Made by a program: the position numbers and the translations under genes. Below are positions 1-10,743 of a DNA stretch of 64,000 bases, in pieces. The notes beneath the pieces are model-generated. The model was not told the origin of the DNA and ran no database searches. It saw only the letters and a program-made list of their open reading frames with translations. The first letter of the stretch is position 1. Each line of letters opens with the position of its first letter. This DNA is from Ruminococcus sp. (GTDB taxonomy: Bacteria; Bacillota; Clostridia; Oscillospirales; Ruminococcaceae): contig JAFUAO010000100.1 of the NCBI GenBank assembly GCA_017460665.1, forward strand, positions 575 through 64,574. The letters are read 5' to 3'.

Positions 1-1
1 G

Positions 2-1099
2 AGTAAACGAGTTAAACCACAATTTGGTGATCTTGTTTTTTCGTATGAAGCCACACTTGGCAGATACGCCTTAATTCCTGAAGGATTTTATGGCTGCTTA
101 GGAAGAAGATTAGCCTTATTAAGAGCCAAAACAGACCGTTTCAACATAAAATGGCTTTATTACTACTTTCTTTCTCCTGAGTGGACAGCGTATATCATCA
201 ACCATACAGTTAAGGGAAGTACTGTAAATAGAATATCAGTTGAGGATTTTCCTGATTTTGAAATTCCAGACACTGATAGACTTGTTCAGGATAGTATTGT
301 GGATGTGTTATCTACTATTGATGCTAAGGTTGATTTGAATAAAGCTGTAAACGATAATTTACAGCACCAACTCAAGCTGATGTACGACTATTGGTTCACT
401 CAGTTTGATTTCCCTGATGAGAACGGCAAGCCGTATCGTGCTTCTGGCGGTGCTATGGTGTGGAATGAGCAGTTGAAGCGTGAAATACCGCTATATTGGA
501 GCATAGGCACTGTTAGCGATTGTGTAGAGAAAATATCAACCGGCTTAAATCCACGAGATAATTTCGTACTCGGCAATGGTAGCATAAGATACATAACTGT
601 AAAAAACCTTACAACAACAGGTAGTTTGGATTTTTCAGGGTGTGACATGATAGATGAAGAAGCAAGAGCTATTGTCCACAGAAGATCGGATATAAGTGTA
701 GGAGACATTCTTTTTGCAAGTATAGCACCTTTAGGAAGGTGTTACCTTATTCAGCAAGATCCTGTTGATTGGGATATAAATGAATCTGTCTTTTCTATTA
801 GAAGCAAAACTGATACTGTTACTCCTGAATTTATGTATCTATACTTTCAGAGTGACAGCTTTATTCAAAAGGCTACAAACACATCAACGGGCAGTATATT
901 CAAAGGTATTCGCATAAATACTTTACTTGATACTGCGTTGATAGTTCCTGAATTGCAAGTGTGCAAGAGCTTCACAGATGCAGTAAAGCCGTTATTAGCT
1001 GAAATAAATAACAATTCTTCCGAAACTGCAAAACTAACAGCTCTCCGAGACTGGCTTCTGCCAATGCTGATGAACGGTCAAGCTACCATATCCGATTGA
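2..1099 (+). CDS. hsdS: Type I restriction-modification specificity subunit (5' truncated by window edge)
   Basis: Frame of ORF 299..1099 is open back to position 2 (SKRVKPQFGDLVFSYEATLG...); two TRD-like regions, central YWFTQFDFPDENGKPY...REIP spacer and C-terminal LTALRDWLLPMLMNGQ typical of HsdS. Confidence 0.93.
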   Translation, partial: SKRVKPQFGDLVFSYEATLGRYALIPEGFYGCLGRRLALLRAKTDRFNIKWLYYYFLSPEWTAYIINHTVKGSTVNRISVEDFPDFEIPDTDRLVQDSIVDVLSTIDAKVDLNKAVNDNLQHQLKLMYDYWFTQFDFPDENGKPYRASGGAMVWNEQLKREIPLYWSIGTVSDCVEKISTGLNPRDNFVLGNGSIRYITVKNLTTTGSLDFSGCDMIDEEARAIVHRRSDISVGDILFASIAPLGRCYLIQQDPVDWDINESVFSIRSKTDTVTPEFMYLYFQSDSFIQKATNTSTGSIFKGIRINTLLDTALIVPELQVCKSFTDAVKPLLAEINNNSSETAKLTALRDWLLPMLMNGQATISD

Positions 1100-1179
1100 T
1101 ACGATAAATTATCGTTTTTTGTATGATTCCCTTTATGAATATACTAAATCGTTATCACAATTTTTATGAGGAGAAAGAT

Positions 1180-3270
1180 ATGAATATTGATGATCCATAT
1201 TTTTATTATGTCGTTGTATTCCATTTAGAAGGCAGTACTACGCAAGAACCTATTATTCACGAACGTTTACCAAAAGAAAATATGCATCTATTAGATACTT
1301 CGGTAAGTGATATATTACCAGCAATTGAATTCATAATGCATCTTCCACGTCATATTTATGATTATTATGATTTGGATGAAGAATTTATAAATTCCCAATA
1401 TGACACACCTCATATGATTTATCTACTCCCAGATAGTGCCTTGCGTGACTTCTTTACCATGTTTCCAGTGCATCCTCATATTATCATAGTATCAGATTTT
1501 TGTTCACAAGAAACAATATCGTTCGCTGCAAGGTTAGAGCCGCTCATCTCTCCGATTCGTATGAAAAAGCTATACGATAAAACACTGAGGTATTATTGGA
1601 CAGTTCTACAACCGAATAATACTGATGGTTATGAACTACTGAATAATTTGGATTATCATTTTTTATTAAAGGATCAGCAGTTAATCGCATTGTCTGGTCT
1701 TTTTCAAAGCAGACAATTTGATGATGTCAGCTTTTATTTGCAGGAAGTCTTTAATTCACAAAATATCGAATCAGTTATTTTCAAAAAACAATGGGAGTAT
1801 ATGTGTAGAGTAAACGCTTATCTATATATGAAAAGAAATTATTCCATGAGTGATTATGATAATGCTTCAAAATTTCAAAAATTGTATTTAGAATCATGTG
1901 AACACGTAAAGTATACGACTGATTTAAGCTTAATAATTACAATGCCAGGTGTACCGAAAGAACAAATCAAATATGGGATATCTGCATCGTACGTAACAAG
2001 AGATGAATTAAGAGCTATTCGTATTATTGGCGTTCATAAAGCCGTTTCAAGGAAAGGCGTTCTTATTGAATTAGAGCGAGTTTCCATTGAAACTTTTTCT
2101 CTCTTATCTAACATTGAGAAAGAATGCATAGATGGAACGAACAATAAACATATTTGGCAGTCATTAAAAAAGTTAGGTAAACAGCTTGGCTCTGCTTTTT
2201 CAAATGAACAAATCGAATACATTAAAAGAGCGAAGGACATTACGGTATTCTCCGACTTCCCAATAGGATTAGCTATATTAGGCGAAGATGAGTTGCCGCT
2301 ACATTGTTATAAAGCTATTTCATATCGTCCTCTTTCTCCCTTGACACGGCAACTTCAAATAGAACTAAAGAAAACATCAGAATACTACCTCGGAAAAGGT
2401 AAAAGAATAAAAATATTATTTGCTGAATGCATTAAAGATGATGTAGAAAACAATCTCATCTTTAAGTATTCTGAGACTGTTTTTGATGCAATCAAAAACA
2501 TTATCAATAATGATGATTTTCAGATTATATATCGCAGAACCAACAATATAGATAATATGCTTGATTTTATAGAATGTAATACCGATGCAGATATATTATA
2601 TATTTCGGCACACGGCCATTACAATAAACATAGAAATTGCGCTGGAATCATGGTCGGAGATGAATTTTGGATGGCTGATCAAAATATACGGGTGCCGCCA
2701 CTTGTTATACTAAGTGCTTGCCATACAAGTCCGAGAGGGATAGGTGCAGTAAACATAGCAGATTTGTTTGTTAGAAATGGTGCTATTGCTGTTTTAAGCA
2801 CTTTTATTCCTGTTAACGCTCAAAGAAATATGATAATAATGACACGATTATTTACTTATATTTCCGAAGCACAAAAAGGCTCTGATCAATATAAAACTTT
2901 ATCGGATTTATGGAATGGGATAGTAATTACCAATGCACTTCATGAAATTCTAAGTGAATCAAAAAGACTAAAAACATGGATGCACCAAATTGGTAAGAAT
3001 GGTATTCCACGAACGGTTGATTTTCAATTAAACAGATCAGTTGGTAGATTACGAAATACTCACTCCTATAGTGATACAATAATAATTATCAAAGAAATGC
3101 TAAAGGAAGAAGGACTTGAGGGGAAATATTCAAATATTCTTGATCAATTTGATTGTTTCCCTGAATCATTTTTTTATCAGTTTATTGGTAGTCCAGAAAA
3201 TATATTCTTATATAATGATACTTTTCGAGAAGCAATTGAACTTGGCTTACCATTCAACGATATAAAATAA
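1180..3270 (+). CDS. CHAT-domain (caspase HetF-associated) protease with long uncharacterised N-terminus
   Basis: ILYISAHG and LVILSACH motifs give the His/Cys caspase-like dyad; ATG 1180 follows GAGGAG (ORF track start 1123). Confidence 0.8.
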   Translation: MNIDDPYFYYVVVFHLEGSTTQEPIIHERLPKENMHLLDTSVSDILPAIEFIMHLPRHIYDYYDLDEEFINSQYDTPHMIYLLPDSALRDFFTMFPVHPHIIIVSDFCSQETISFAARLEPLISPIRMKKLYDKTLRYYWTVLQPNNTDGYELLNNLDYHFLLKDQQLIALSGLFQSRQFDDVSFYLQEVFNSQNIESVIFKKQWEYMCRVNAYLYMKRNYSMSDYDNASKFQKLYLESCEHVKYTTDLSLIITMPGVPKEQIKYGISASYVTRDELRAIRIIGVHKAVSRKGVLIELERVSIETFSLLSNIEKECIDGTNNKHIWQSLKKLGKQLGSAFSNEQIEYIKRAKDITVFSDFPIGLAILGEDELPLHCYKAISYRPLSPLTRQLQIELKKTSEYYLGKGKRIKILFAECIKDDVENNLIFKYSETVFDAIKNIINNDDFQIIYRRTNNIDNMLDFIECNTDADILYISAHGHYNKHRNCAGIMVGDEFWMADQNIRVPPLVILSACHTSPRGIGAVNIADLFVRNGAIAVLSTFIPVNAQRNMIIMTRLFTYISEAQKGSDQYKTLSDLWNGIVITNALHEILSESKRLKTWMHQIGKNGIPRTVDFQLNRSVGRLRNTHSYSDTIIIIKEMLKEEGLEGKYSNILDQFDCFPESFFYQFIGSPENIFLYNDTFREAIELGLPFNDIK

Positions 3271-3315
3271 GTATTTGTTCCTTTTGATAGTGTCAGATAA
3301 AAGAGGTGAATTTTT

Positions 3316-3825
3316 ATGGCAAGGGTATTTGGTCAAGATACAGAAGAAAACCGTAAAGAGCGAAAATCATATCAAGTTTTATTTGGACTTATGAATACAG
3401 ATATTTGGTCATTTCTCGGAAGAGATAACCATGATCATGGCGTTGATTATTCTTTTGAATACATTGAAAATGGTGAATTCAGAGGGTACAGAATTCTTGC
3501 ACAAATAAAAGGAAGCAAGGTCACCAAGATTAGTAACAATGAAGTCGTTTTCGACTTGCCAGTGAAAACAGCGAATTACGCAGTTGGGAGTTCGCAGCCT
3601 TTTATACTGTTTTTTGTGAATTTGCTAACCGAGTGCGCATATTATCTTCCGCTACAGGATTATTTTATCGCTAATCCAGATAAGATGGACGCATTGGAGA
3701 AAAACACAAGCACAATTCGAGTTTTCATTCCATTGAATAATACTATAGAAGATCCGGAGCTGGTTGCTGTTGCCAAATCACAGTATTCATTTGATGAAGA
3801 ACACGGACTGAGAAAAACACGGTAA
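3316..3825 (+). CDS. DUF4365-family protein, PD-(D/E)xK nuclease-like fold
   Basis: DHGVDY...LAQIKG pattern (D-x-G-h-D ... Q-h-K) typical of DUF4365; GAGGTG RBS; 45 bp downstream of CHAT gene. Confidence 0.72.
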   Translation: MARVFGQDTEENRKERKSYQVLFGLMNTDIWSFLGRDNHDHGVDYSFEYIENGEFRGYRILAQIKGSKVTKISNNEVVFDLPVKTANYAVGSSQPFILFFVNLLTECAYYLPLQDYFIANPDKMDALEKNTSTIRVFIPLNNTIEDPELVAVAKSQYSFDEEHGLRKTR

Positions 3826-3943
3826 TTTCTTCTGTTTTCTTTTTTCCTTTTAAACATGTATGAGCGACATATACATTACATAGTTCTATCAATAACCTCA
3901 AATCAAACTATGATTGCAGGTAAAAAATTGTATATGCCAGCTT

Positions 3944-4239
3944 AAAAGTGTACCAAAAACCAGTAAAACGCTGACGAAAAAGTGTACCAGAAAATAGCTT
4001 GGTTTAAGGAGGACCGCCACCCTTGACAGAACCTGAAAGAAATGCTTTACAGTCGGTGCCGACGGTGACGAACTCAAGAACAGCTACAAAGTATTCCTGT
4101 CAGATAGCCGATTATAGCATTTCTTTCAGAACCTGTCAAGGGCAAGCCGCCTTACGGCGGTGGCTGGTTTTGCCTCCGGTTCGGAATCTAAGAACAGCTA
4201 TCTGGTACACTGTCTGATTAGCGTTTGTGGTACACTTTT
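3944..4239. repeat. Nested inverted-repeat element with AAAAGTGTACCA boxes and a 27-bp imperfect inverted repeat
   Basis: AAAAGTGTACCA at 3944 and 3978; inverted TGGTACACT at 4203 and TGGTACACTTTT at 4228; CCCTTGACAG-aacc-TGAAAGAAATGCT (4020-4046) versus its inverse at 4116-4142. Confidence 0.8.
4111..4139 (-). promoter_or_regulatory. Consensus sigma70/sigmaA promoter firing leftward
   Basis: Minus strand TTGACA (4139-4134), 17-bp spacer, TGC-TATAAT (4116-4111). Confidence 0.6.
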
Positions 4240-4285
4240 GAATCAGCATTCACAAAAATCAAAGTTAACATAATAATAAATATCA

Positions 4286-5010
4286 CACCGGCAAAGCCGG
4301 TGGTTTTATAACAGCCCTAAAAGGGCACTTTACCAGCCGCCCCTTAAGGGGCACGTTGGAAGCTAAAGCTACCTACCGCATTTATAGTTACTTTTACTTC
4401 TTCAGGTCTTTAAAAGGATCCATGTATTCCTTAAATGATATTTGGTCATACATCATATCTTCCTTTTCCTGTTCACGGATATATTTTGCTATTCCATTCT
4501 TATTTCCGCCAACAGTGCTAACATAATATCCTCTGCACCAAAAATGCCGGTTTCCGTACTTGTATTTCAGGTTGGAGTATCGTTCAAATATTATCATTGT
4601 ACTCTTGCCTTTCAAGTATCCCATAAAATCGCTTATTCGCTGATTTGGCGGTATTTCTACAAGCATATGTATATGGTCTGGCATTGCGTTTGCTTCTATT
4701 ATGTTTACGTGTTTTCTTTCGCACAGTTCTCGTAATATCGCTCCTATATCTTTTTTTAGCTTCCCATATATCACTTTTCTCCTGTACTTTGGTGCAAATA
4801 CTATATGGTATTGACATTTCCAGCTTGTATGTGATAAACTATATGTATCATTAGATTTATTTTCCATTCTAATGTCCTCCTTGATTCTTTGTAATGCGGT
4901 TGGTAGCCTATTACTATTGTACATCAAGGAGGTTTTCTTGTCTATTGCTTCTCGCCGTTTATTCTTTTACTAAAGTTTATACATTCCACCTGCACAGCAG
5001 GTGGTTTTTT
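4286..5010 (-). mobile_element. IS200/IS605-family element, tnpA only (IS200 type)
   Basis: Y1 transposase flanked by related hairpins CACCGGC-aaa-GCCGGTG (4286-4302) and CCACCTGC-aca-GCAGGTGG (4986-5004); exact ends approximate. Confidence 0.85.
4394..4867 (-). CDS. tnpA: IS200/IS605 Y1 (HUH) transposase
   Basis: YHIVFAPKYRR, DHIHML (HUH), FWCRGYY, catalytic Tyr in IAKYIREQ; ATG 4867 with GGAGG RBS. Confidence 0.95.
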   Translation of the reverse strand: MENKSNDTYSLSHTSWKCQYHIVFAPKYRRKVIYGKLKKDIGAILRELCERKHVNIIEANAMPDHIHMLVEIPPNQRISDFMGYLKGKSTMIIFERYSNLKYKYGNRHFWCRGYYVSTVGGNKNGIAKYIREQEKEDMMYDQISFKEYMDPFKDLKK

Positions 5011-5019
5011 TATCGAGAT

Positions 5020-5055
5020 AAAAAAAGCGGTCAGCCTGTGTAGGTTGACCGCTTT
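5020..5055 (-). terminator. Intrinsic terminator of the leftward XRE...DUF4274 operon
   Basis: AAAGCGGTCAGCCT-gtgt-AGGTTGACCGCTTT stem with an A-run on its left (U-tract on minus strand). Confidence 0.75.
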
Positions 5056-5061
5056 ACTATT

Positions 5062-5502
5062 TTATATGTCGATATCATAATTCTTGCCATCGATGGCTGT
5101 AATCAGTACTTCCTCGTTTTTATTAATCTGTTTCTTCAACTTAAATAATTGAACTTTAGTCAACGGAGGCACAAAAGCTACATCGGAAGGTTTATAATCG
5201 CCGTTTATAATGCGAGTGTAGACATCGGATACAAATGTATGCCAAGGTAACAGATCAGTATCTGCTTCTTTATCCAATATAAATGAATAGCCGTCGGCAC
5301 GATAAAACACAAGAAGCGCAGTGCTTAATGAGCAACAAGGATTATTTATGATTACTGCCGGAATATCAAATCCATTACCCCAAGTGTAATTATATGCAAA
5401 AACATACCATTCATCATCATCACACTCGGCAAGAAAAGCTTTTACTTTCTCCTCGTCTACTTCGTAAATCATATCTAATAAAAGTTCTTTTCTCATATCC
5501 AC
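5062..5502 (-). CDS. DUF4274-domain protein (possible immunity protein)
   Basis: FAYNYTWGNGFDIPAVIINNPCCSLSTALLVFYRADG matches my recollection of the DUF4274 pattern. Confidence 0.7.
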   Translation of the reverse strand: MDMRKELLLDMIYEVDEEKVKAFLAECDDDEWYVFAYNYTWGNGFDIPAVIINNPCCSLSTALLVFYRADGYSFILDKEADTDLLPWHTFVSDVYTRIINGDYKPSDVAFVPPLTKVQLFKLKKQINKNEEVLITAIDGKNYDIDI

Positions 5503-5541
5503 CCGCTCTTTACTTCAGTTTGACTAAGTATATGACTATTA

Positions 5542-5850
5542 TTATGCAAAACTTGTAGGCTTGATAGGATTTTCCATTCTCTTACCGTTAGGGAGCTTAT
5601 AGTCAAGGATAGTCACTTCCCCAGTTTTCCTGTTCACAGATACCCTTGCGAAAACTTTCCACTTATAATCATTTTCGTCCATATCATCAATATCATCGAA
5701 ACCGATAAAATACTCATATTCAACATCATCATATTTATCATCAGGATATGAATGACACGAACCTTCAAAATGCTCTCGGAAATAATCCCTGCCCATTAAA
5801 TCTGCAATTGCAAGCCAAGCGTCTACCTTTGCCTGTTCCTTAGTCAGCAT
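5542..5850 (-). CDS. Small acidic hypothetical protein (candidate immunity protein)
   Basis: 102 aa, D/E-rich, start overlaps the stop of upstream ORF by 1 bp with GGAGGT RBS. Confidence 0.7.
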   Translation of the reverse strand: MLTKEQAKVDAWLAIADLMGRDYFREHFEGSCHSYPDDKYDDVEYEYFIGFDDIDDMDENDYKWKVFARVSVNRKTGEVTILDYKLPNGKRMENPIKPTSFA

Positions 5851-6485
5851 TATTTACCACCTCCAAAAAGTTCCATTAATGCTCTTCTGCGAGCATCATC
5901 AAGCGTACTTGATACTGTTCCTGTTTCAATTACGCCATGCTCATCAAAAAGTGTAGTTCTTCCGTTAGGCGTTACTATTGAGCTTTCACGCTGTCCTGTT
6001 GTCTGTCTAAGTTTGCGCATCATTAAGCGGTCAGACTTCGAGGGGACACAATCGTCATTATGAGGGTGACTATGGAAATCCAGCGTTCCAGAATGCATTT
6101 TCATTTCATCAAGCAGTTCGTTTGGAATCACTGTACCACCTTTATCACCACGAATGAGATAGGTTTTTCCACCAATTGTCACACGGGCAAATTCAACGCC
6201 AGTTTCTTTTGACATAATACTTACATCTGATATACTAAACTCACCAATTGATCCGGTAATAGAATCGCCCTTGTTTTGTAACTGTGATAGCTTTTCTTTT
6301 ATGTGTTCAGGTATATCTACACCTCGTTCAGAATAACTCTCAATATCGTTTGAGTCATTAAGATATGTGCTGTTTATTGCCGCTTCATTTTCCTTAGCCT
6401 TAGCTGCTAATTCATCATTATCAAGCGTAAGCTGGGGAGAACCGCTTGTGCCGCTTGCAAGTCCGGACTTTGCACCGTCAGCCAT
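5850..6485 (-). CDS. Protein with C-terminal JAB/MPN-like metallo-motif (candidate toxin)
   Basis: VEF...FHSHPHNDDCVPSKSD (E...HxH...S-x2-D); low-complexity G/S-rich N-terminus; overlaps DUF4417 gene end by 8 bp. Confidence 0.65.
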   Translation of the reverse strand: MADGAKSGLASGTSGSPQLTLDNDELAAKAKENEAAINSTYLNDSNDIESYSERGVDIPEHIKEKLSQLQNKGDSITGSIGEFSISDVSIMSKETGVEFARVTIGGKTYLIRGDKGGTVIPNELLDEMKMHSGTLDFHSHPHNDDCVPSKSDRLMMRKLRQTTGQRESSIVTPNGRTTLFDEHGVIETGTVSSTLDDARRRALMELFGGGK

Positions 6486-7353
6486 TTCTGCTCACCGCCT
6501 TTCGGTTAGCAGTGTTACGGGCTTTGAGTGTATTGTCGGGAATAACGATCTCAATCCCCTTACTGATAGCATATGCAAAGCATTCCATGACCCTATCGTT
6601 AGTTCCGCAAGAATCATAAACAACAATAGCTTTGAGTTTGAGATGATCGACTGTAAAGCGTATCTTCCAGAGAAGTCGCTCATATTCAACCTTATCCTGC
6701 AAGTGTGACTTGGTGCTCATAGCTACGACCGAGCATTCTTCATATCCGTCAAGAGCATAAGCGGCACTTCTTTCGGTAGGGAAAGAAATATTAGGTATCA
6801 CCACAGCTCCAATCTCAACGATAAACCATATAGCCACAACACGGGCTTTGAAAAGCCTGTATTCGTTCTCTATAACATGAATATCGCCAAATTCCGAATA
6901 ATCAGGAGATATAAAGAACTTTACGCCCTCAAACCGCTTTTTGAAATAAGCAAGCCTTGCAGTATCATCGTGGTATATAGCTTCGTATAAGCCACGTTTA
7001 CCGTCAAAGACAGAATCAAACTGATAAAAGCAGACACCTGTCCTGTCAGTCTTATGATAAAGCCCCGGCTCAGAGTAAAGTGCGAGGAAATCGGGATACA
7101 CCTCGGTCTTACAATAAAGCGCAGGGAGATCCTTTTCGCCGCAGCTATGCGTCTTGTTAGTATAATTGAGAAAGCTGAAATTCAACAGTTTGCTCAATGT
7201 TTGTCTTGATTTCAATACAAAACTCTCCTTTCTCCTGTCAACAGGAAAACAGATGATAAATTCGTATAATCTGCCGCTTGACAAAGGAGAGGGAGTTGTG
7301 ATATAATAAACTTGTCTAAGGTTACGATCATATCGTAACTCCCCGAAACGCAT
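6478..7353 (-). CDS. DUF4417-domain protein
   Basis: FYQFD...FFISPDYSEFGD...VVIPNISF...VVAMSTK follows the DUF4417 motif order; true start may be downstream of 7353. Confidence 0.75.
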   Translation of the reverse strand: MRFGELRYDRNLRQVYYITTPSPLSSGRLYEFIICFPVDRRKESFVLKSRQTLSKLLNFSFLNYTNKTHSCGEKDLPALYCKTEVYPDFLALYSEPGLYHKTDRTGVCFYQFDSVFDGKRGLYEAIYHDDTARLAYFKKRFEGVKFFISPDYSEFGDIHVIENEYRLFKARVVAIWFIVEIGAVVIPNISFPTERSAAYALDGYEECSVVAMSTKSHLQDKVEYERLLWKIRFTVDHLKLKAIVVYDSCGTNDRVMECFAYAISKGIEIVIPDNTLKARNTANRKAVSRNG

Positions 7354-7444
7354 TGACTTGTTGTTACCAGCAACTTGTCAGTGCGTTTTTCCTTTGTCTT
7401 GATCGTAGTCCATTGGGATCACCATACCTTTCAATACAATACTA

Positions 7445-7987
7445 TCATTTTTTATTCTTATCTTGCTTTACCCTATACTTTGCAGATGCTTCTGTTACAG
7501 GGTATTTCTCCATAATTGCTTTGGCTTTCATACCAACAGTAGCATCATATGGAATGGTCAACTCTCCGCAAAGTGCCTTTGCCTGCCATTCGACACTGCA
7601 ATATGCAGGGATTTCTTCATCCTTTGCGAGAGTACGGGTTGAAACAGGCGTATAACCAAGATAGAACAGTATCACATGACATATTTCATGACATATGAAG
7701 CACAGAAAAGCTCTGTTGCCGTGATAGCAAGCACCATCATAGACTGTCTGTTTGATCTCAATCATGAATCCGCCTTCAGGCTTAGGATAACACCAGGCAA
7801 ATACATCAGCAGGCAGTTTATCATCTTCAAGCACAGAATACTCTGTACCTTCAAATATAATACAAGTCCGTTCGAGGATTTCAAGAACTGGGAACGGTTC
7901 GGATTCGTTCAACCCAAAAATCTTTCTAACATATTTACTTATCTGCCTGATAGCAATTCTGCTGAGGGGTTTGGTCATATAATCCAT
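7445..7987 (-). CDS. ImmA/IrrE-family metallo-endopeptidase (Peptidase_M78)
   Basis: ICHEICH (HExxH) plus VEWQAKALCGELTIP; translationally coupled to XRE gene. Confidence 0.88.
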   Translation of the reverse strand: MDYMTKPLSRIAIRQISKYVRKIFGLNESEPFPVLEILERTCIIFEGTEYSVLEDDKLPADVFAWCYPKPEGGFMIEIKQTVYDGACYHGNRAFLCFICHEICHVILFYLGYTPVSTRTLAKDEEIPAYCSVEWQAKALCGELTIPYDATVGMKAKAIMEKYPVTEASAKYRVKQDKNKK

Positions 7988-8352
7988 TAGTTATTACCAC
8001 TCCTTTTCAGCAATTCCATGATCTTTTCGGCTGTATCCTCGTCAATTCCATCAAATGAGCGGGCAAATTGTAACGCCACCTCTCTTTGATAGTTTGCTGA
8101 CTTGGACAGTGTGATCTTAACTTGGTTTTTTGAATTTTCAGCCGCTGTCTTCATATCTGCGATTTCATCATCAGAAAGGGCATAATGCTCAGCAATGATG
8201 TCAAACCATTCATCGGGGACATTTTTTCGTCCGTTTTCAACCGCTGATAAAAAAGGAGTAGAGACACCGAGCAGTTTAGCAACATCGCCCATGACCTCAT
8301 GATGCTGAACACGAAGGACTCTCATGAACTCGCCAAATTTAGTATATGTCAT
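7987..8352 (-). CDS. XRE-family HTH transcriptional regulator
   Basis: MGDVAKLLGVSTPFLSAVENGRKNVP HTH_3 pattern; ATG 8352 with AGGAGG RBS. Confidence 0.88.
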   Translation of the reverse strand: MTYTKFGEFMRVLRVQHHEVMGDVAKLLGVSTPFLSAVENGRKNVPDEWFDIIAEHYALSDDEIADMKTAAENSKNQVKITLSKSANYQREVALQFARSFDGIDEDTAEKIMELLKRSGNN

Positions 8353-8375
8353 CTTGATACACCTCCTTACCAAAT

Positions 8376-8404
8376 ATCATATCACAAAGTTACACGTTTG
8401 TCAA
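8376..8404 (-). promoter_or_regulatory. sigmaA-type promoter of the XRE-ImmA operon
   Basis: Minus strand TTGACA (8404-8399), 17 bp, TATGAT (8381-8376). Confidence 0.6.
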
Positions 8405-8499: not shown

Positions 8500-8832
8500 T
8501 CAAAATAATAGACCAGCATCAGCAGTATTCTTTTTTCCGCCGCCTGAGAAATGCACTTCCTCCACAACGATCTCTGTGGAATTATTGCGAGCATTCCTGA
8601 GCGTACCAACCATAGTAATAGTCTCACCTTCAGAGAACAGATTGCTGATCATTTCGCCGTTTCGGTTATAGGCGATACAGATAAATGTGTCACTCTTGGC
8701 TGTATCGGTCATGTAATGTTTTGGTCGTTCAACTTCGATGTCAAATTTACAATATTGGTTTCCATTATCACTTGCGAGTACAGGTTCGGAAGTAAGCCTG
8801 CCTGTCATCATAATTGTATTCAGCATACCCAT
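8500..8832 (-). CDS. ssb: Single-stranded DNA-binding protein (short, mobile-element type)
   Basis: LNTIMMTGRLTSEP...FDIEVERP...DTFICIAY...IVVEEVHF OB-fold pattern; GAAAGGA RBS before ATG 8832. Confidence 0.75.
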   Translation of the reverse strand: MGMLNTIMMTGRLTSEPVLASDNGNQYCKFDIEVERPKHYMTDTAKSDTFICIAYNRNGEMISNLFSEGETITMVGTLRNARNNSTEIVVEEVHFSGGGKKNTADAGLLF

Positions 8833-8839
8833 ATTCCTT

Positions 8840-9049
8840 TCAGTCCTCATCGCTGCACTTATCAAGTCCGTGAAGTAGCTGAATGTATACGCACTCCGCA
8901 CGATCATGCTCCTCGCCCTCAGTAGACATCATAAGTTCAAGAAAAAATGCCTTTGCTTGTTCGTAGTTAGTCCAGACTTCACGTCTGCCGTTGCATATGG
9001 TAGTGACTTTGCGTGACTTCGGCATTGCCAATTCTGAGATTTTCAACAT
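8840..9049 (-). CDS. Small hypothetical protein
   Basis: 69-aa ORF from ATG 9049 with GGAGGT RBS, directly upstream of ssb. Confidence 0.6.
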   Translation of the reverse strand: MLKISELAMPKSRKVTTICNGRREVWTNYEQAKAFFLELMMSTEGEEHDRAECVYIQLLHGLDKCSDED

Positions 9050-9285
9050 AGCTGTGACCTCCATAAGTTTTATTGTAGATACATTATATACCACAGCAAG
9101 CTAAGAGTCCAGCTCTGCGGAGAATCTGTAACTATTCTTGTGAAATGCGCAGCAATACCGACACTTTCCCCGGTGCATAATAACGTGAGTGATAGTATCG
9201 CTTTCCTGTGGCATACTATCAACAGGTCATAATATCAGCAGTACGGCTTTATGAATAACTTTTCACTGAATTTCCATTCATAAAC

Positions 9286-9314
9286 TTGACAAGCACAAAG
9301 CACTGTGGTATAAT
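9286..9314 (+). promoter_or_regulatory. sigmaA promoter with extended -10
   Basis: TTGACA (9286) - 17 bp - TGgTATAAT (9309). Confidence 0.7.
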
Positions 9315-9369
9315 ATCATTATACTGAAAAATCATTCAGAGAAAATATTTTCAGAAAAGATGTGATGCT

Positions 9370-10743
9370 ATGTTTATCGGAAGAGAAAAAGAACTCAGGC
9401 AGTTAAATGCCGAGCTTTCCTCATGGAAACGCAAAACGGCGGTGCTGGTCTACGGCAAACGCAGAGTTGGAAAATCCACGCTTTTGAGTGAAGCTGCAAA
9501 ACGCTTTGAGGGTGTCGTCATCAACCATATGTGCGTGACAAGCACCTTTGAGGGAAATATGGAGCTGATCTACCGAAGCGTTTCGGAGGGACTTGGACTG
9601 CCGAATATCCGCTTCGGCTCTCTCTTCGAGATGATGGATTACCTGAAAACATTGGACAAAAAGATACTGCTCATCATCGACGAATACCCCTACCTCAAGC
9701 AGACCAAAAAGAAGAACGAAGTCGATTCCTATATGCAGGCGGTCATCGACAAGCTGCCCGAAAATGTCAAGCTGGTGCTTTGCGGTTCATACATCACAGT
9801 GATGAAGGAACTGCTGGAGGAGGGCAATCCGCTGTTCGGACGGTTCTCGCTGATACAGCATATCCGTGATTTCGACTACCTTGACGCGGCGAAATTCTAT
9901 CCGGAGCTTGACCTTCGGGACAAGGTCGCCTTCTATGCCGTATTCGGTGGAAGTCCCTATGTTCTTGAAAATCTTGACACAAGCCTGACTATTCGGGAAA
10001 ACATCGAGTGTCTGTTGCTGCCCGAAACGGGTCTGGTGCGTTCACACATCGAGAATGTCATGCTCAAAGAGATACAGAAGACATTCGATGCGAGGATACT
10101 GGAAATTCTCGGCAACGGCAAGAAGCGTTACAGCGAGATACGGGACAAAATAGCGAACAGCGAGACAGGTCTGCTCGATAAGCAGTTGAAAATTCTTCTC
10201 GATATGGAGACCATCCAAAAGACCGAGCCCATCAATCGCCGAAACGACAAGAAAAAACAGTTCTATGAGATCGTGGATAACCTGATGCGGTTCTATTTCA
10301 CGTTCATTTTCGGCAAGGCGGGAACGATCGCCCGTATCGGTGAGGAGCAGTTCTTCAATCGAAATATTGACGCTGTGCTGGAGCAATTCGTCAGCAGACG
10401 GCTTGAAGGCATCGCACTGCAATACTTCCACAGAGCCGCTATGCGGGGCTTATACCCCGATATTGACGATTTCGGCAGCTATTGGTACGATGATCCTGCC
10501 ACCAAGACCAACGGCGAGTTCGACTGCGTGATACGGCGTGGGGAGCAGTATGATTTCTATGAATGCAAATACTTCGACCGCCCCATGACTCTTGAAGAAT
10601 GCCGTCAGGAAAAAGAGCAGCTTGACAGCATCAAGGGCATCACCGTGTCAGGCGTGGGATTTGTCTGCACGGGTGGATTTGCGTTCGAGGGTGCTGAGGA
10701 ATTCACACTCATTGACGGAAAGACGCTTTACTTCAACGAATGA
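9370..10743 (+). CDS. ATP-binding protein (archaeal-type AAA ATPase + wHTH + DUF234 / PD-(D/E)xK tail)
   Basis: Walker A YGKRRVGKS, Walker B LIIDEYPY, C-terminal GEFDCV...FYECKY. Confidence 0.88.
   Translation: MFIGREKELRQLNAELSSWKRKTAVLVYGKRRVGKSTLLSEAAKRFEGVVINHMCVTSTFEGNMELIYRSVSEGLGLPNIRFGSLFEMMDYLKTLDKKILLIIDEYPYLKQTKKKNEVDSYMQAVIDKLPENVKLVLCGSYITVMKELLEEGNPLFGRFSLIQHIRDFDYLDAAKFYPELDLRDKVAFYAVFGGSPYVLENLDTSLTIRENIECLLLPETGLVRSHIENVMLKEIQKTFDARILEILGNGKKRYSEIRDKIANSETGLLDKQLKILLDMETIQKTEPINRRNDKKKQFYEIVDNLMRFYFTFIFGKAGTIARIGEEQFFNRNIDAVLEQFVSRRLEGIALQYFHRAAMRGLYPDIDDFGSYWYDDPATKTNGEFDCVIRRGEQYDFYECKYFDRPMTLEECRQEKEQLDSIKGITVSGVGFVCTGGFAFEGAEEFTLIDGKTLYFNE

Follow-up and report, generated by a model that had tools for sequence, protein, structure and literature searches.

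The minus strand of the window, a stretch of 64,000 nucleotides of Ruminococcus sp. DNA (contig JAFUAO010000100.1, positions 575 to 64,574), carries six co-directional genes at 5062-8404 that end in one hairpin terminator. The region is very probably one copy of a DUF4417-linked polymorphic toxin-immunity cassette, a class that appears not to have been described. An XRE-family helix-turn-helix (HTH) repressor gene and a gene for an ImmA-type peptidase are followed by the genes for a DUF4417 protein, a 211-amino-acid protein with a JAB-like C-terminal domain, and two small acidic proteins, the second of which belongs to the DUF4274 family. An earlier note on this DNA had read the last four genes as a polymorphic toxin-immunity module, a proposal that is borne out by the swapped toxin tips, the co-varying immunity genes and the recombination junction that were found.

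Constant leader and exchangeable toxin tips

The DUF4417 subfamily of the window was sampled as 70 loci from species-representative genomes (71 with the window), which span Clostridia, Lachnospiraceae, Coriobacteriia, Eggerthellaceae, Pseudoscardovia, Treponema, Bacteroidales, Selenomonadales, Acholeplasmatales and Lactobacillus. Cultured strains that carry the cassette include Ruminococcus flavefaciens FD-1 (L028, with a Tox-GHH tip), Eubacterium ruminantium ATCC 17233 (L033), Lachnospira multipara LB2003 (L041) and Pseudoscardovia radai DSM 24742 (L053). In 55 of the 71 loci the gene that overlaps the DUF4417 stop codon begins with the leader xNSGLAHGTSGSPQLTLENxExxxKxKENE; several of the leader-less loci end at a contig edge right after DUF4417. 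The G/S-rich leader MADGAKSGLASGTSGS that the earlier note had pointed out is indeed present at the start of the 211-amino-acid protein. The tabulation of the gene after DUF4417 that had been suggested as a check yielded a conserved leader, swapped toxin tips and co-varying downstream genes. The 59 leader toxins fall into 16 unrelated tip clusters and, together with the frequency of the leader gene, this agrees with the view of DUF4417 as the constant partner of a variable toxin. Tips are matched above the Pfam cut-offs by Tox-GHH, AHH, Ntox50, EndoU_bacteria and DUF6883, at E ≤ 0.001 by Ntox28 and DUF4258, and weakly by YwqJ-deaminase and PBECR1, and many tips have no family. No toxin scanned matched the MuF domain.

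Each tip cluster is paired one-to-one with the gene that follows it. Tip cluster 1 is followed by family I1 (12/12), cluster 2 by I2 (6/6), a pentapeptide-repeat protein, the JAB tip by I3 (4/4), and clusters 6, 7 and 8 by I4, I5 and I6, respectively (3/3 each). The immunity proteins of the tip clusters are without the DNA-binding domains typical of type II antitoxins. The point of exchange is visible in the DNA: in blastn comparisons with five sister cassettes that bear other tips (L006, L010, L007, L008 and L009), homology to the window ends in all five within the same few nucleotides, at toxin codons 34-36. The similarity covers DUF4417 and the leader, and in L006 and L010 also the ImmA and XRE genes. 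Among locus pairs with DUF4417 proteins at least 75% identical, the tips differ in 97 of 117; the window and L006 have DUF4417 proteins that are 99% identical and tips of clusters 3 and 5, respectively. Two loci (L007 and L040) contain tandem leader cassettes, with second copies of the leader.

G8, T13, G15 and Q18 are invariant in the leader alignment. The leader core shows a ratio of nonsynonymous to synonymous polymorphism (pN/pS) of 0.27 with abundant synonymous change: serine codons of both types, TCN and AGY, are present, and glycine and proline each use all four of their codons. This pattern points to purifying selection at the protein level. The leader is disordered in the AlphaFold model, with predicted local distance difference test (pLDDT) values below 50, the disorder extending over residues 1-45. 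A leader profile matched 117 of 1.84 billion representative proteins, 33-280 amino acids long, and in 114 of them the match lies at residues 1-36. Since leader proteins are so few and yet stand directly after DUF4417 in most of the sampled loci, the arrangement is far beyond chance. Of the 49 long leader proteins, 13 have toxin-type or related domains (DUF6883, Ntox50, EndoU, PBECR1, AHH, Ntox28 and DUF4258), one has a PBC match that is probably due to chance, and 35 have no Pfam match.

The same tip can carry different leaders behind different DUF4417 subfamilies, and the leader therefore follows the DUF4417 subfamily, not the tip. Behind the L003-type DUF4417, which is 21-27% identical to that of the window, the JAB tip carries the leader MSKGNSGLFHGTLGT, whereas it carries the SGLASGTSGSPQ leader in the window; an apparent 19-residue insert in the window JAB protein is exactly the remainder of the local leader. 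Likewise, the Ntox50 tip is found behind two leader types, MGAGxGGNFGxTKG and SGLAHGTSGSPQ. Because the leaders of the window clade (MNH.../MADG...) are without the N-terminal Gly-Gly of the phage versions, the shared determinant would be the internal Gly/Thr core (G-x-hydrophobic-x-x-T-x-G) and not a free glycine amine.

The JAB-like tip and the immunity genes

The 211-amino-acid protein contains the motif that had been recognized in it, E98...H138-S-H140-(PHNDDCVP)-S149-K-S-D152, with a spacer of eight residues, one above the canonical seven. E98, H138, P141, D145, P148, S149 and D152 are invariant in 31 relatives and H140 is nearly invariant. At 90% identity the tip family forms 145 clusters, which come from metagenomes of the gut and rumen; its members are typically 185 amino acids long and are conserved over their full length. 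Prok-JAB matches the window protein at E=0.0099 (16.2 bits, below the cut-off of 25) and also touches its relatives below threshold, and Toxin-JAB1 (PF15659) gives no match to the window protein and 15-19 bits for the relatives, against a cut-off of 21. The JAB alignment, used as a profile, found nothing among PDB sequences. For residues 60-190 the AlphaFold model of the tip has pLDDT values above 90. All of the 29 best Foldseek matches in the PDB are JAMM/MPN proteins (Rpn11, AMSH, BRCC36 and others), although the matches are weak, with E values of at least 8e-3, a template modelling (TM) score of about 0.3 and a probability of up to 0.97. Based on motif and model, the protein is read as a divergent JAB-fold hydrolase outside any existing Pfam family. 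Among the subfamily loci the JAB profile matches only the window and the JAB loci, and a search of 400 genomes of the phylum detected the family in the genome of the window alone.

The JAB toxins mostly terminate in L-F-G-G followed by another 1-4 residues, and the rest terminate in LWR. The LFGG tail is similar to the end of ubiquitin-like precursors, on which JAMM peptidases normally act, and could represent a pseudo-substrate or a self-processing tail. On two metagenome contigs (L114 7581-8126 and L115 2405-2950) a gene for a KptA/Tpt1 RNA 2'-phosphotransferase (PTS_2-RNA) and a 176-amino-acid open reading frame (ORF) follow the DUF4417, JAB and immunity genes. Another JAB cassette (L118 1-11167) resides on an integrative mobilisable element with integrase, relaxase, NikA/MobC and AAA_25 genes. 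Six small ORFs come after it, one of them for a DUF4279 protein, and they probably represent additional immunity genes.

Both small proteins encoded downstream of the toxin are acidic, as had been stated, with computed isoelectric points of 4.64 and 4.34. The family of the 102-amino-acid protein (I3) follows the JAB tip in 8/8 contexts examined, whatever the DUF4417 subfamily, and these include a Bacteroidota-like contig and the integrative mobilisable element. The protein is 47-68% identical to other I3 members and matches no known family in Pfam, PHROGs, NCBIfam or PADLOC. From this linkage it is predicted to be the cognate immunity partner of the JAB tip.

The DUF4274 protein (PF14096, E=1.9e-13, 50.6 bits against a cut-off of 27) has no counterpart in the other JAB cassettes examined, and is 49% identical to the product of the gene directly after an AHH-tipped leader toxin in L024. 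These relationships fit the suggestion that a cognate immunity gene is followed here by an orphan one. Closer relatives, P0363 (78%) and P0362 (81%), lie behind AHH C-terminal remnants in the islets L120-L122; no AHH remnant is present upstream of the DUF4274 gene of the window. The latter thus appears to be an orphan immunity gene of the AHH-nuclease-tip type, outside the conserved core, which consists of XRE/ImmA, DUF4417, toxin and immunity genes.

The occurrence of DUF4274 in immunity arrays, which the earlier note had mentioned, is seen here as well, in that the islets are toxin-less poly-immunity loci. The islet in L120 (4253-6010; also present in L121 and L122) is located between trmD and PSP1/holB genes, and encodes an Ntox50-type immunity protein (I16), an I2/AHH chimera, a DUF4274 protein and an I6 protein that is 92% identical to that of L010. 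In the chimeric ORF, the N-terminus of a pentapeptide immunity protein (I2) is fused to the C-terminal remnant of an AHH toxin. There is no DUF4417, toxin or leader gene within 5 kb of the islets. The collection has 64 blocks with the DUF4274 protein of L120, and the islet neighbourhood is common to 21 of the 23 contigs read.

DUF4417, its phage versions and regulation of the cassette

The DUF4417 protein of the window belongs to a divergent branch of PF14386 (E=3.7e-15, 56.3-56.9 bits against a cut-off of 28.9), the canonical members of which score 220-250 bits. The earlier note had placed the start of its gene at 7353. The start most likely is TTG 7215 instead, as this codon is preceded by the ribosome-binding site AAAGGAGAG and yields 245 amino acids, the length of nearly all homologues (n=197). 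Seven residues, D113, G121, P150, D151, S153, D157 and W176, are invariant across the DUF4417 subfamilies, which suggests that D113, D151, S153 and D157 contribute to an active or binding site. The AlphaFold model (pLDDT 82) has an alpha/beta, TIM-barrel-like fold. Foldseek found no significant match to it in the PDB, the hits being weak and generic TIM-barrel-like alpha/beta proteins (best E 3.5e-3, TM ≤0.38). In BFVD the structural relatives are two unnamed viral proteins (E 2.7e-12 and 4.8e-9), with an additional match over 136 columns to a leucine-rich repeat protein (E 7.9e-4). In view of the weak PDB hits, no specific enzymology is assigned to DUF4417, including a TGT/DpdA-like one; a TGT match was obtained in BFVD, at E 0.26. 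The DUF4417 alignment, when searched as a profile in PDB sequences, gave nothing informative. Of the four cassette proteins only DUF4417 matched PHROGs, namely phrog_8680 and the C-terminal part of phrog_940, annotated as a nuclease. DUF4417 has been described as a phage-enriched fusion partner of the ParB-CTPase fold (10.1101/2025.10.10.680097); no paper was found that links it to toxins.

PF14386 occurs in 51 of 399 genomes of the class and in 40 of its 217 genera. For canonical DUF4417, 26 loci could be evaluated; in 17 of them the product of the adjoining gene has the G-x-[FYLA]-x-x-T-x-G core, and in 22 it begins with a glycine-rich stretch. Glycine-rich leader proteins thus also come after canonical DUF4417 genes, in Clostridia and in phages alike, much as the earlier note had described. 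In Streptococcus phage Javan241, a ParB_N-DUF4417 gene is followed by two unannotated ORFs starting with MGGRGA(R/K)L, just ahead of the terminase genes. These ORFs, of 117 and 72 amino acids, fill an annotation gap before the packaging genes (L076 3374-3958; MK448714.1 14482-15066). In Mycobacterium phage Jeeves, gene 1 encodes DUF4417, the overlapping gene 2 encodes a VIP2-like toxin starting with MGGRGSAGGTRS, and gene 3 is small and encodes an acidic protein; Mycobacterium phage Faith1 has the same pair of DUF4417 and leader protein. The subfamily of the window is found on 3 of 2.9 million viral contigs (IMG/VR), and a tblastn search of phage records with the window DUF4417 gave one weak match. 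On these two results the possibility that the cassette is a simple prophage fragment was rejected. Canonical leader toxins in seven loci (L085, L086, L088, L089, L094, L102 and L103) have a second conserved segment after the leader, LDALSxLLTAASLIPGLDTFTxLASIPVDLARGDFLSAGL, which is hydrophobic and glycine-rich, matches no Pfam family, and may act on membranes or serve as a pre-toxin module. This segment is missing from the clade of the window.

The features of the cassette are collected in Table 1. The tight coupling of the last four genes was confirmed from the ORF listing and by reading the junctions: two overlaps, of 8 bp and 1 bp, are followed by a gap of 39 bp, and the four genes share a single terminator.

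Table 1 Features of the DUF4417-linked cassette in the window.
Feature	Position	Strand	Basis or remark
XRE-family HTH repressor gene	7987..8373	-	Pfam HTH_31, E=1.9e-8, 34.9 bits (cut-off 27)
ImmA/IrrE-like metallopeptidase gene	7445..7987	-	HEICH motif; Peptidase_M78 below cut-off
DUF4417 gene, 245 amino acids	6478..7215	-	Pfam PF14386; the long ORF from 7353 has 291 amino acids
JAB-like toxin gene, 211 amino acids	6485..5850	-	ORF listing
Toxin leader, residues 1-36 (MADGAKSGLASGTSGSPQLTLDNDELAAKAKENEAA)	6378..6485	-	Constant handle common to unrelated toxins
Recombination junction	6376..6384		End of DNA homology to sister cassettes with other tips; toxin codons 34-36
JAB/JAMM-like toxin tip	5850..6377	-	E98, H138xH140, S149, D152; C-terminal LFGGGK
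Acidic protein gene, 102 amino acids	5850..5542	-	ORF listing
DUF4274 protein gene, 146 amino acids	5502..5062	-	Pfam PF14096
Intrinsic terminator	5024..5055	-	14-bp stem, then T-run TTTTTTTAT on the operon strand
Promoter-like site, TTGACA-17-TATGAT with TG	8376..8404	-	Ahead of the XRE gene; consensus scan 11/12
Perfect extended -10 promoter, TTGACA-18-TGnTATAAT	7278..7307	+	Antisense; points into the ImmA/XRE genes
Palindrome GTTACGAT-ATG-ATCGTAAC	7321-7339		8-bp arms; just after the antisense promoter

The promoter-like site ahead of the XRE gene is likely to serve the whole cassette, and the true start of the XRE protein is probably ATG 8352 (MTYTKFGEF...). The consensus scan found no good sense promoter between the ImmA and DUF4417 genes. 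Although it contains the HEICH motif, the ImmA-like protein matches Peptidase_M78 below the cut-off (E=0.008, 16.4 bits, cut-off 22), and a weak annotation of this family is also seen in L001 and L004. XRE homologues are found upstream of DUF4417 in 21+13 loci and ImmA homologues in 20+12 loci. A further 14 loci have a 362-amino-acid protein in the regulator position, which is read as an HTH-peptidase fusion based on its HTH-like start, its length and its position. Taken together, about 48 of 76 loci have XRE and ImmA genes, or the gene for the 362-amino-acid protein, ahead of DUF4417 in the same orientation, and these regulators are its only conserved neighbours in the 76 loci. About 23 related loci have an antisense promoter that matches 11-12 of the 12 consensus positions, at 56-82 nucleotides upstream of the start of DUF4417; since its offset is conserved, antisense RNA or transcriptional interference at 7278-7339 is likely. 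By analogy to the ImmR/ImmA and CapH/CapP pairs (bioRxiv 10.1101/2022.04.27.489752), we infer that XRE and ImmA would keep the operon silent until a stress signal is received, for example DNA damage or single-stranded DNA, and that transcription from the XRE promoter (8404-8376) would begin upon repressor cleavage, with antisense control in addition.

Proposed mechanism, alternatives and known systems

The comparisons show that the conserved unit consists of XRE and the ImmA-type peptidase, DUF4417, a small toxin and an immunity protein, and that everything beyond toxin codon ~35 is exchangeable by recombination together with the next gene. In the window, the JAB domain would be a metal-dependent hydrolase, a nuclease or a peptidase, that kills cells without the 102-amino-acid protein, which in turn would bind and block it. 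DUF4417 would recognize the leader, by binding, enzymatic modification or processing, and in this way license any tip for a common step of trafficking or activation. The toxins would act between cells, as the very same immunity families form arrays without toxins in other genomes. Between-cell antagonism predicts such arrays and tandem cassettes, which a purely internal toxin would hardly account for. DUF4417 and the leader may be a trafficking device, and phage particles or lysis-dependent release are the leading candidates for the route of export and entry. That DUF4417 and the G-x-hydrophobic-x-x-T-x-G leader constitute a new, self-contained polymorphic-toxin route beyond the classes known from Zhang et al. 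2012, in which a DUF4417 enzyme modifies or processes the leader and thereby licenses export or injection, is put forward tentatively as one possibility; the modification may, for example, take place at the invariant threonine, and export or injection possibly occurs via phage particles or induced lysis.

Several observations weigh against a between-cell toxin-immunity cassette. As the earlier note had stated, secretion machinery is absent, and Pfam scans and neighbourhood comparisons revealed no secretion signal and no receptor-binding or translocation domain, either in the cassette or conserved nearby. The JAB assignment is based on sub-threshold hidden Markov model and fold matches and on a motif with a non-canonical spacer. 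Direct pairing of DUF4274 with an intact AHH toxin is seen once (L024), the other two cases being remnants. The identity of the leader correlates with that of DUF4417 (rho 0.72), a relationship that could in part result from their physical linkage upstream of the recombination point. DUF4417 itself has no informative structural or sequence relative in the PDB and BFVD fold comparisons and profile searches. Moreover, the low-GC, defence-island-like setting and the CapH/CapP-like regulators would also fit an intracellular role.

The most direct expression of such a role would be a stress-induced tripartite toxin-antitoxin or abortive-infection module, in which the toxin stays in the cell and DUF4417 senses a phage or DNA cue or controls the release of the toxin from its antitoxin via the leader. 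The neighbouring type I restriction-modification S subunit, BovA-like protein, DUF4365 protein (PDC-M02A) and PDC-S27 ATPase genes of the low-GC island are consistent with this possibility, as is the head of XRE and ImmA genes, which resembles CapH/CapP and is found in many defence operons (bioRxiv 10.1101/2022.04.27.489752). The lack of an export signal or machinery at the cassette, the tips and partners of toxin-antitoxin type (DUF4258, and DUF6883 with DUF4926), and the fusion of phage DUF4417 to ParB_N, a DNA/NTP-binding domain, point in the same direction. An intracellular module is nevertheless distinctly unlikely. Arrays without toxins contain only immunity families of this system (I16, an I2 fragment, DUF4274 and I6) together with toxin remnants, and the window itself has an orphan immunity gene. 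Tandem cassettes and rapid tip swaps between near-identical DUF4417 genes are signatures of between-cell antagonism with no obvious internal value, the immunity proteins are not built like DNA-binding antitoxins, and the four genes match no PADLOC model. Given the orphan immunity arrays, the intracellular action (addiction or anti-phage) that the earlier note had entertained is therefore judged the less likely option.

A doubtful, more specific version of the delivery step treats the toxins as phage cargo, as has been proposed for the MuF toxins, the leader being the tag by which DUF4417 loads effectors into the phage particle or onto its DNA. Chromosomal cassettes would then be morons or satellites that use a resident prophage when the same stress induces both. 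DUF4417 is common in phages (867 records match a ParB-DUF4417 query, many of them via the ParB part only), and it stands just ahead of the terminase genes in Streptococcus phages. It is gene 1 of cluster-A-type mycobacteriophages, where a tagged VIP2-like toxin and a small acidic protein follow. In addition, one cassette of the window subfamily follows apparent tail and lysis genes on an IMG/VR contig, a reading based solely on N-termini and ORF sizes. Induction of prophages and of integrative and conjugative elements typically involves ImmA/XRE switches, the toxins are small, and no delivery vehicle other than the phage capsid is shared by every phylum in which the cassette occurs. Against this, viral contigs with the subfamily of the window are exceedingly few, most cassettes are located between housekeeping genes with no phage genes nearby, and no MuF, portal or capsid-targeting feature is present. 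It is highly improbable that the JAB protein is an ordinary housekeeping or DNA-repair factor, RadC-like or a deconjugating peptidase, that happens to lie beside a gene for a single-stranded DNA-binding protein (SSB), with the small ORFs as unrelated fillers. Most JAB domains do belong to non-toxic peptidases or RadC-like proteins, the SSB gene lies 2 kb upstream, and the LFGG end resembles a ubiquitin-like tail. However, the leader and the recombination junction are the same as in bona fide nuclease toxins, the protein is strictly linked to DUF4417 and the 102-amino-acid protein in unrelated genomic settings, it is absent from the other genomes among the 400 of the phylum, and there are no E1, E2 or ubiquitin-like protein genes nearby.

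As a polymorphic toxin-immunity cassette, the region shares with the Rhs, CdiA, LXG and MafB systems (PMC3482391) a constant N-terminus with variable C-terminal toxin domains, drawn from the same pool of tips (Tox-GHH, AHH, Ntox50, EndoU and Ntox28), as well as an immunity gene immediately downstream, a sharp junction, orphan cassettes and poly-immunity loci. It differs from them in that the constant part comprises ~35 disordered residues and no secretion or trafficking domain, and in having a separate upstream constant partner, DUF4417, and its own XRE/ImmA switch. No element of type II, V, VI or VII secretion (T2/T5/T6/T7) and no PVC, PrsW, TcdB/TcaC or MuF element is present, and the trafficking classes of Zhang et al. 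2012 include no DUF4417 type (PMC3482391). Like the Tox-JAB-1 (PF15659) and Tox-JAB-2 (DUF4329) domains of Zhang et al. 2012, the window tip combines a putative JAB fold with E, H[ST]H, S and D residues and a dedicated immunity protein, and a hydrolase is predicted, a nuclease rather than a peptidase of ubiquitin-like proteins. In contrast to these domains, the window tip scores below threshold, has an eight-residue spacer and is not fused to Rhs, and its immunity protein I3 is a new family and not Imm65 or Imm-NTF2.

The nearest phage analogue is provided by the MuF toxins of temperate phages (Jamet et al. 2017, PMC5576092), which resemble the DUF4417-linked toxins in the phage link, the position of phage copies by DNA-packaging genes, the abundance in gut Firmicutes, and the small nuclease or ADP-ribosyltransferase tips with immunity genes. 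The DUF4417-linked toxin, in contrast, has no MuF domain and is not fused to a structural protein, and most copies of the window subfamily are chromosomal and outside prophages. As in CapH/CapP and ImmR/ImmA (bioRxiv 10.1101/2022.04.27.489752; 10.64898/2026.05.16.725639), an XRE HTH repressor and a probable HExxH peptidase are encoded directly upstream, on the same strand, of a potentially toxic operon. Here, however, the cargo is a toxin-immunity cassette and not a set of CBASS or mobile-element excision genes, the M78 match is below the Pfam cut-off, and an antisense promoter lies between regulators and cargo. In colicin operons, too, stress induces a nuclease-type toxin that is encoded along with its cognate immunity gene and with a constant third gene. 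Colicins, however, have receptor-binding and translocation domains and a lysis lipoprotein, neither of which DUF4417 resembles, and the regulator of the cassette is not LexA.

If the proposed assignment is correct, DUF4417, which is present in about one in eight Clostridia genomes and is common in Streptococcus and Mycobacterium phages, would mark a large unrecognized class of toxin-immunity systems of the gut and rumen. It would give DUF4417 a testable role, and the leader could be used as an easily searched signature of toxin and immunity families that are not yet known. The known toxin families would gain a new one of JAB fold, along with its immunity protein, DUF4274 would be assigned to AHH-nuclease immunity, and the question is raised of how toxins of 120-300 residues gain access to their targets without a secretion signal. 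To this the window would contribute a new JAB-fold tip with its immunity family, an orphan DUF4274 gene, a sharp recombination junction, and a leader variant that narrows the conserved determinant.

The four cassette proteins have no match in an NCBIfam scan, and in PADLOC-DB 2.0 neither these nor the ImmA-like protein match a defence model. The window's own genome contains no other copies of the immunity genes or tips besides a distant GHH-like match on contig C75 (39208-39468), which is 30% identical to the Tox-GHH tip and may belong to an unrelated toxin gene. The cassette is embedded in a low-GC island (35-41% guanine plus cytosine vs 53-57%) near the start of contig C85, and the make-up of this island (window 1-4930 and 8500-10743) is that of a defence island. 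Besides the type I restriction-modification S subunit gene, it encodes a 715-amino-acid BovA-like protein (PADLOC), the DUF4365 protein (PDC-M02A), the PDC-S27-like ATPase, an IS200 TnpA, the SSB and a small phrog_34775 protein.

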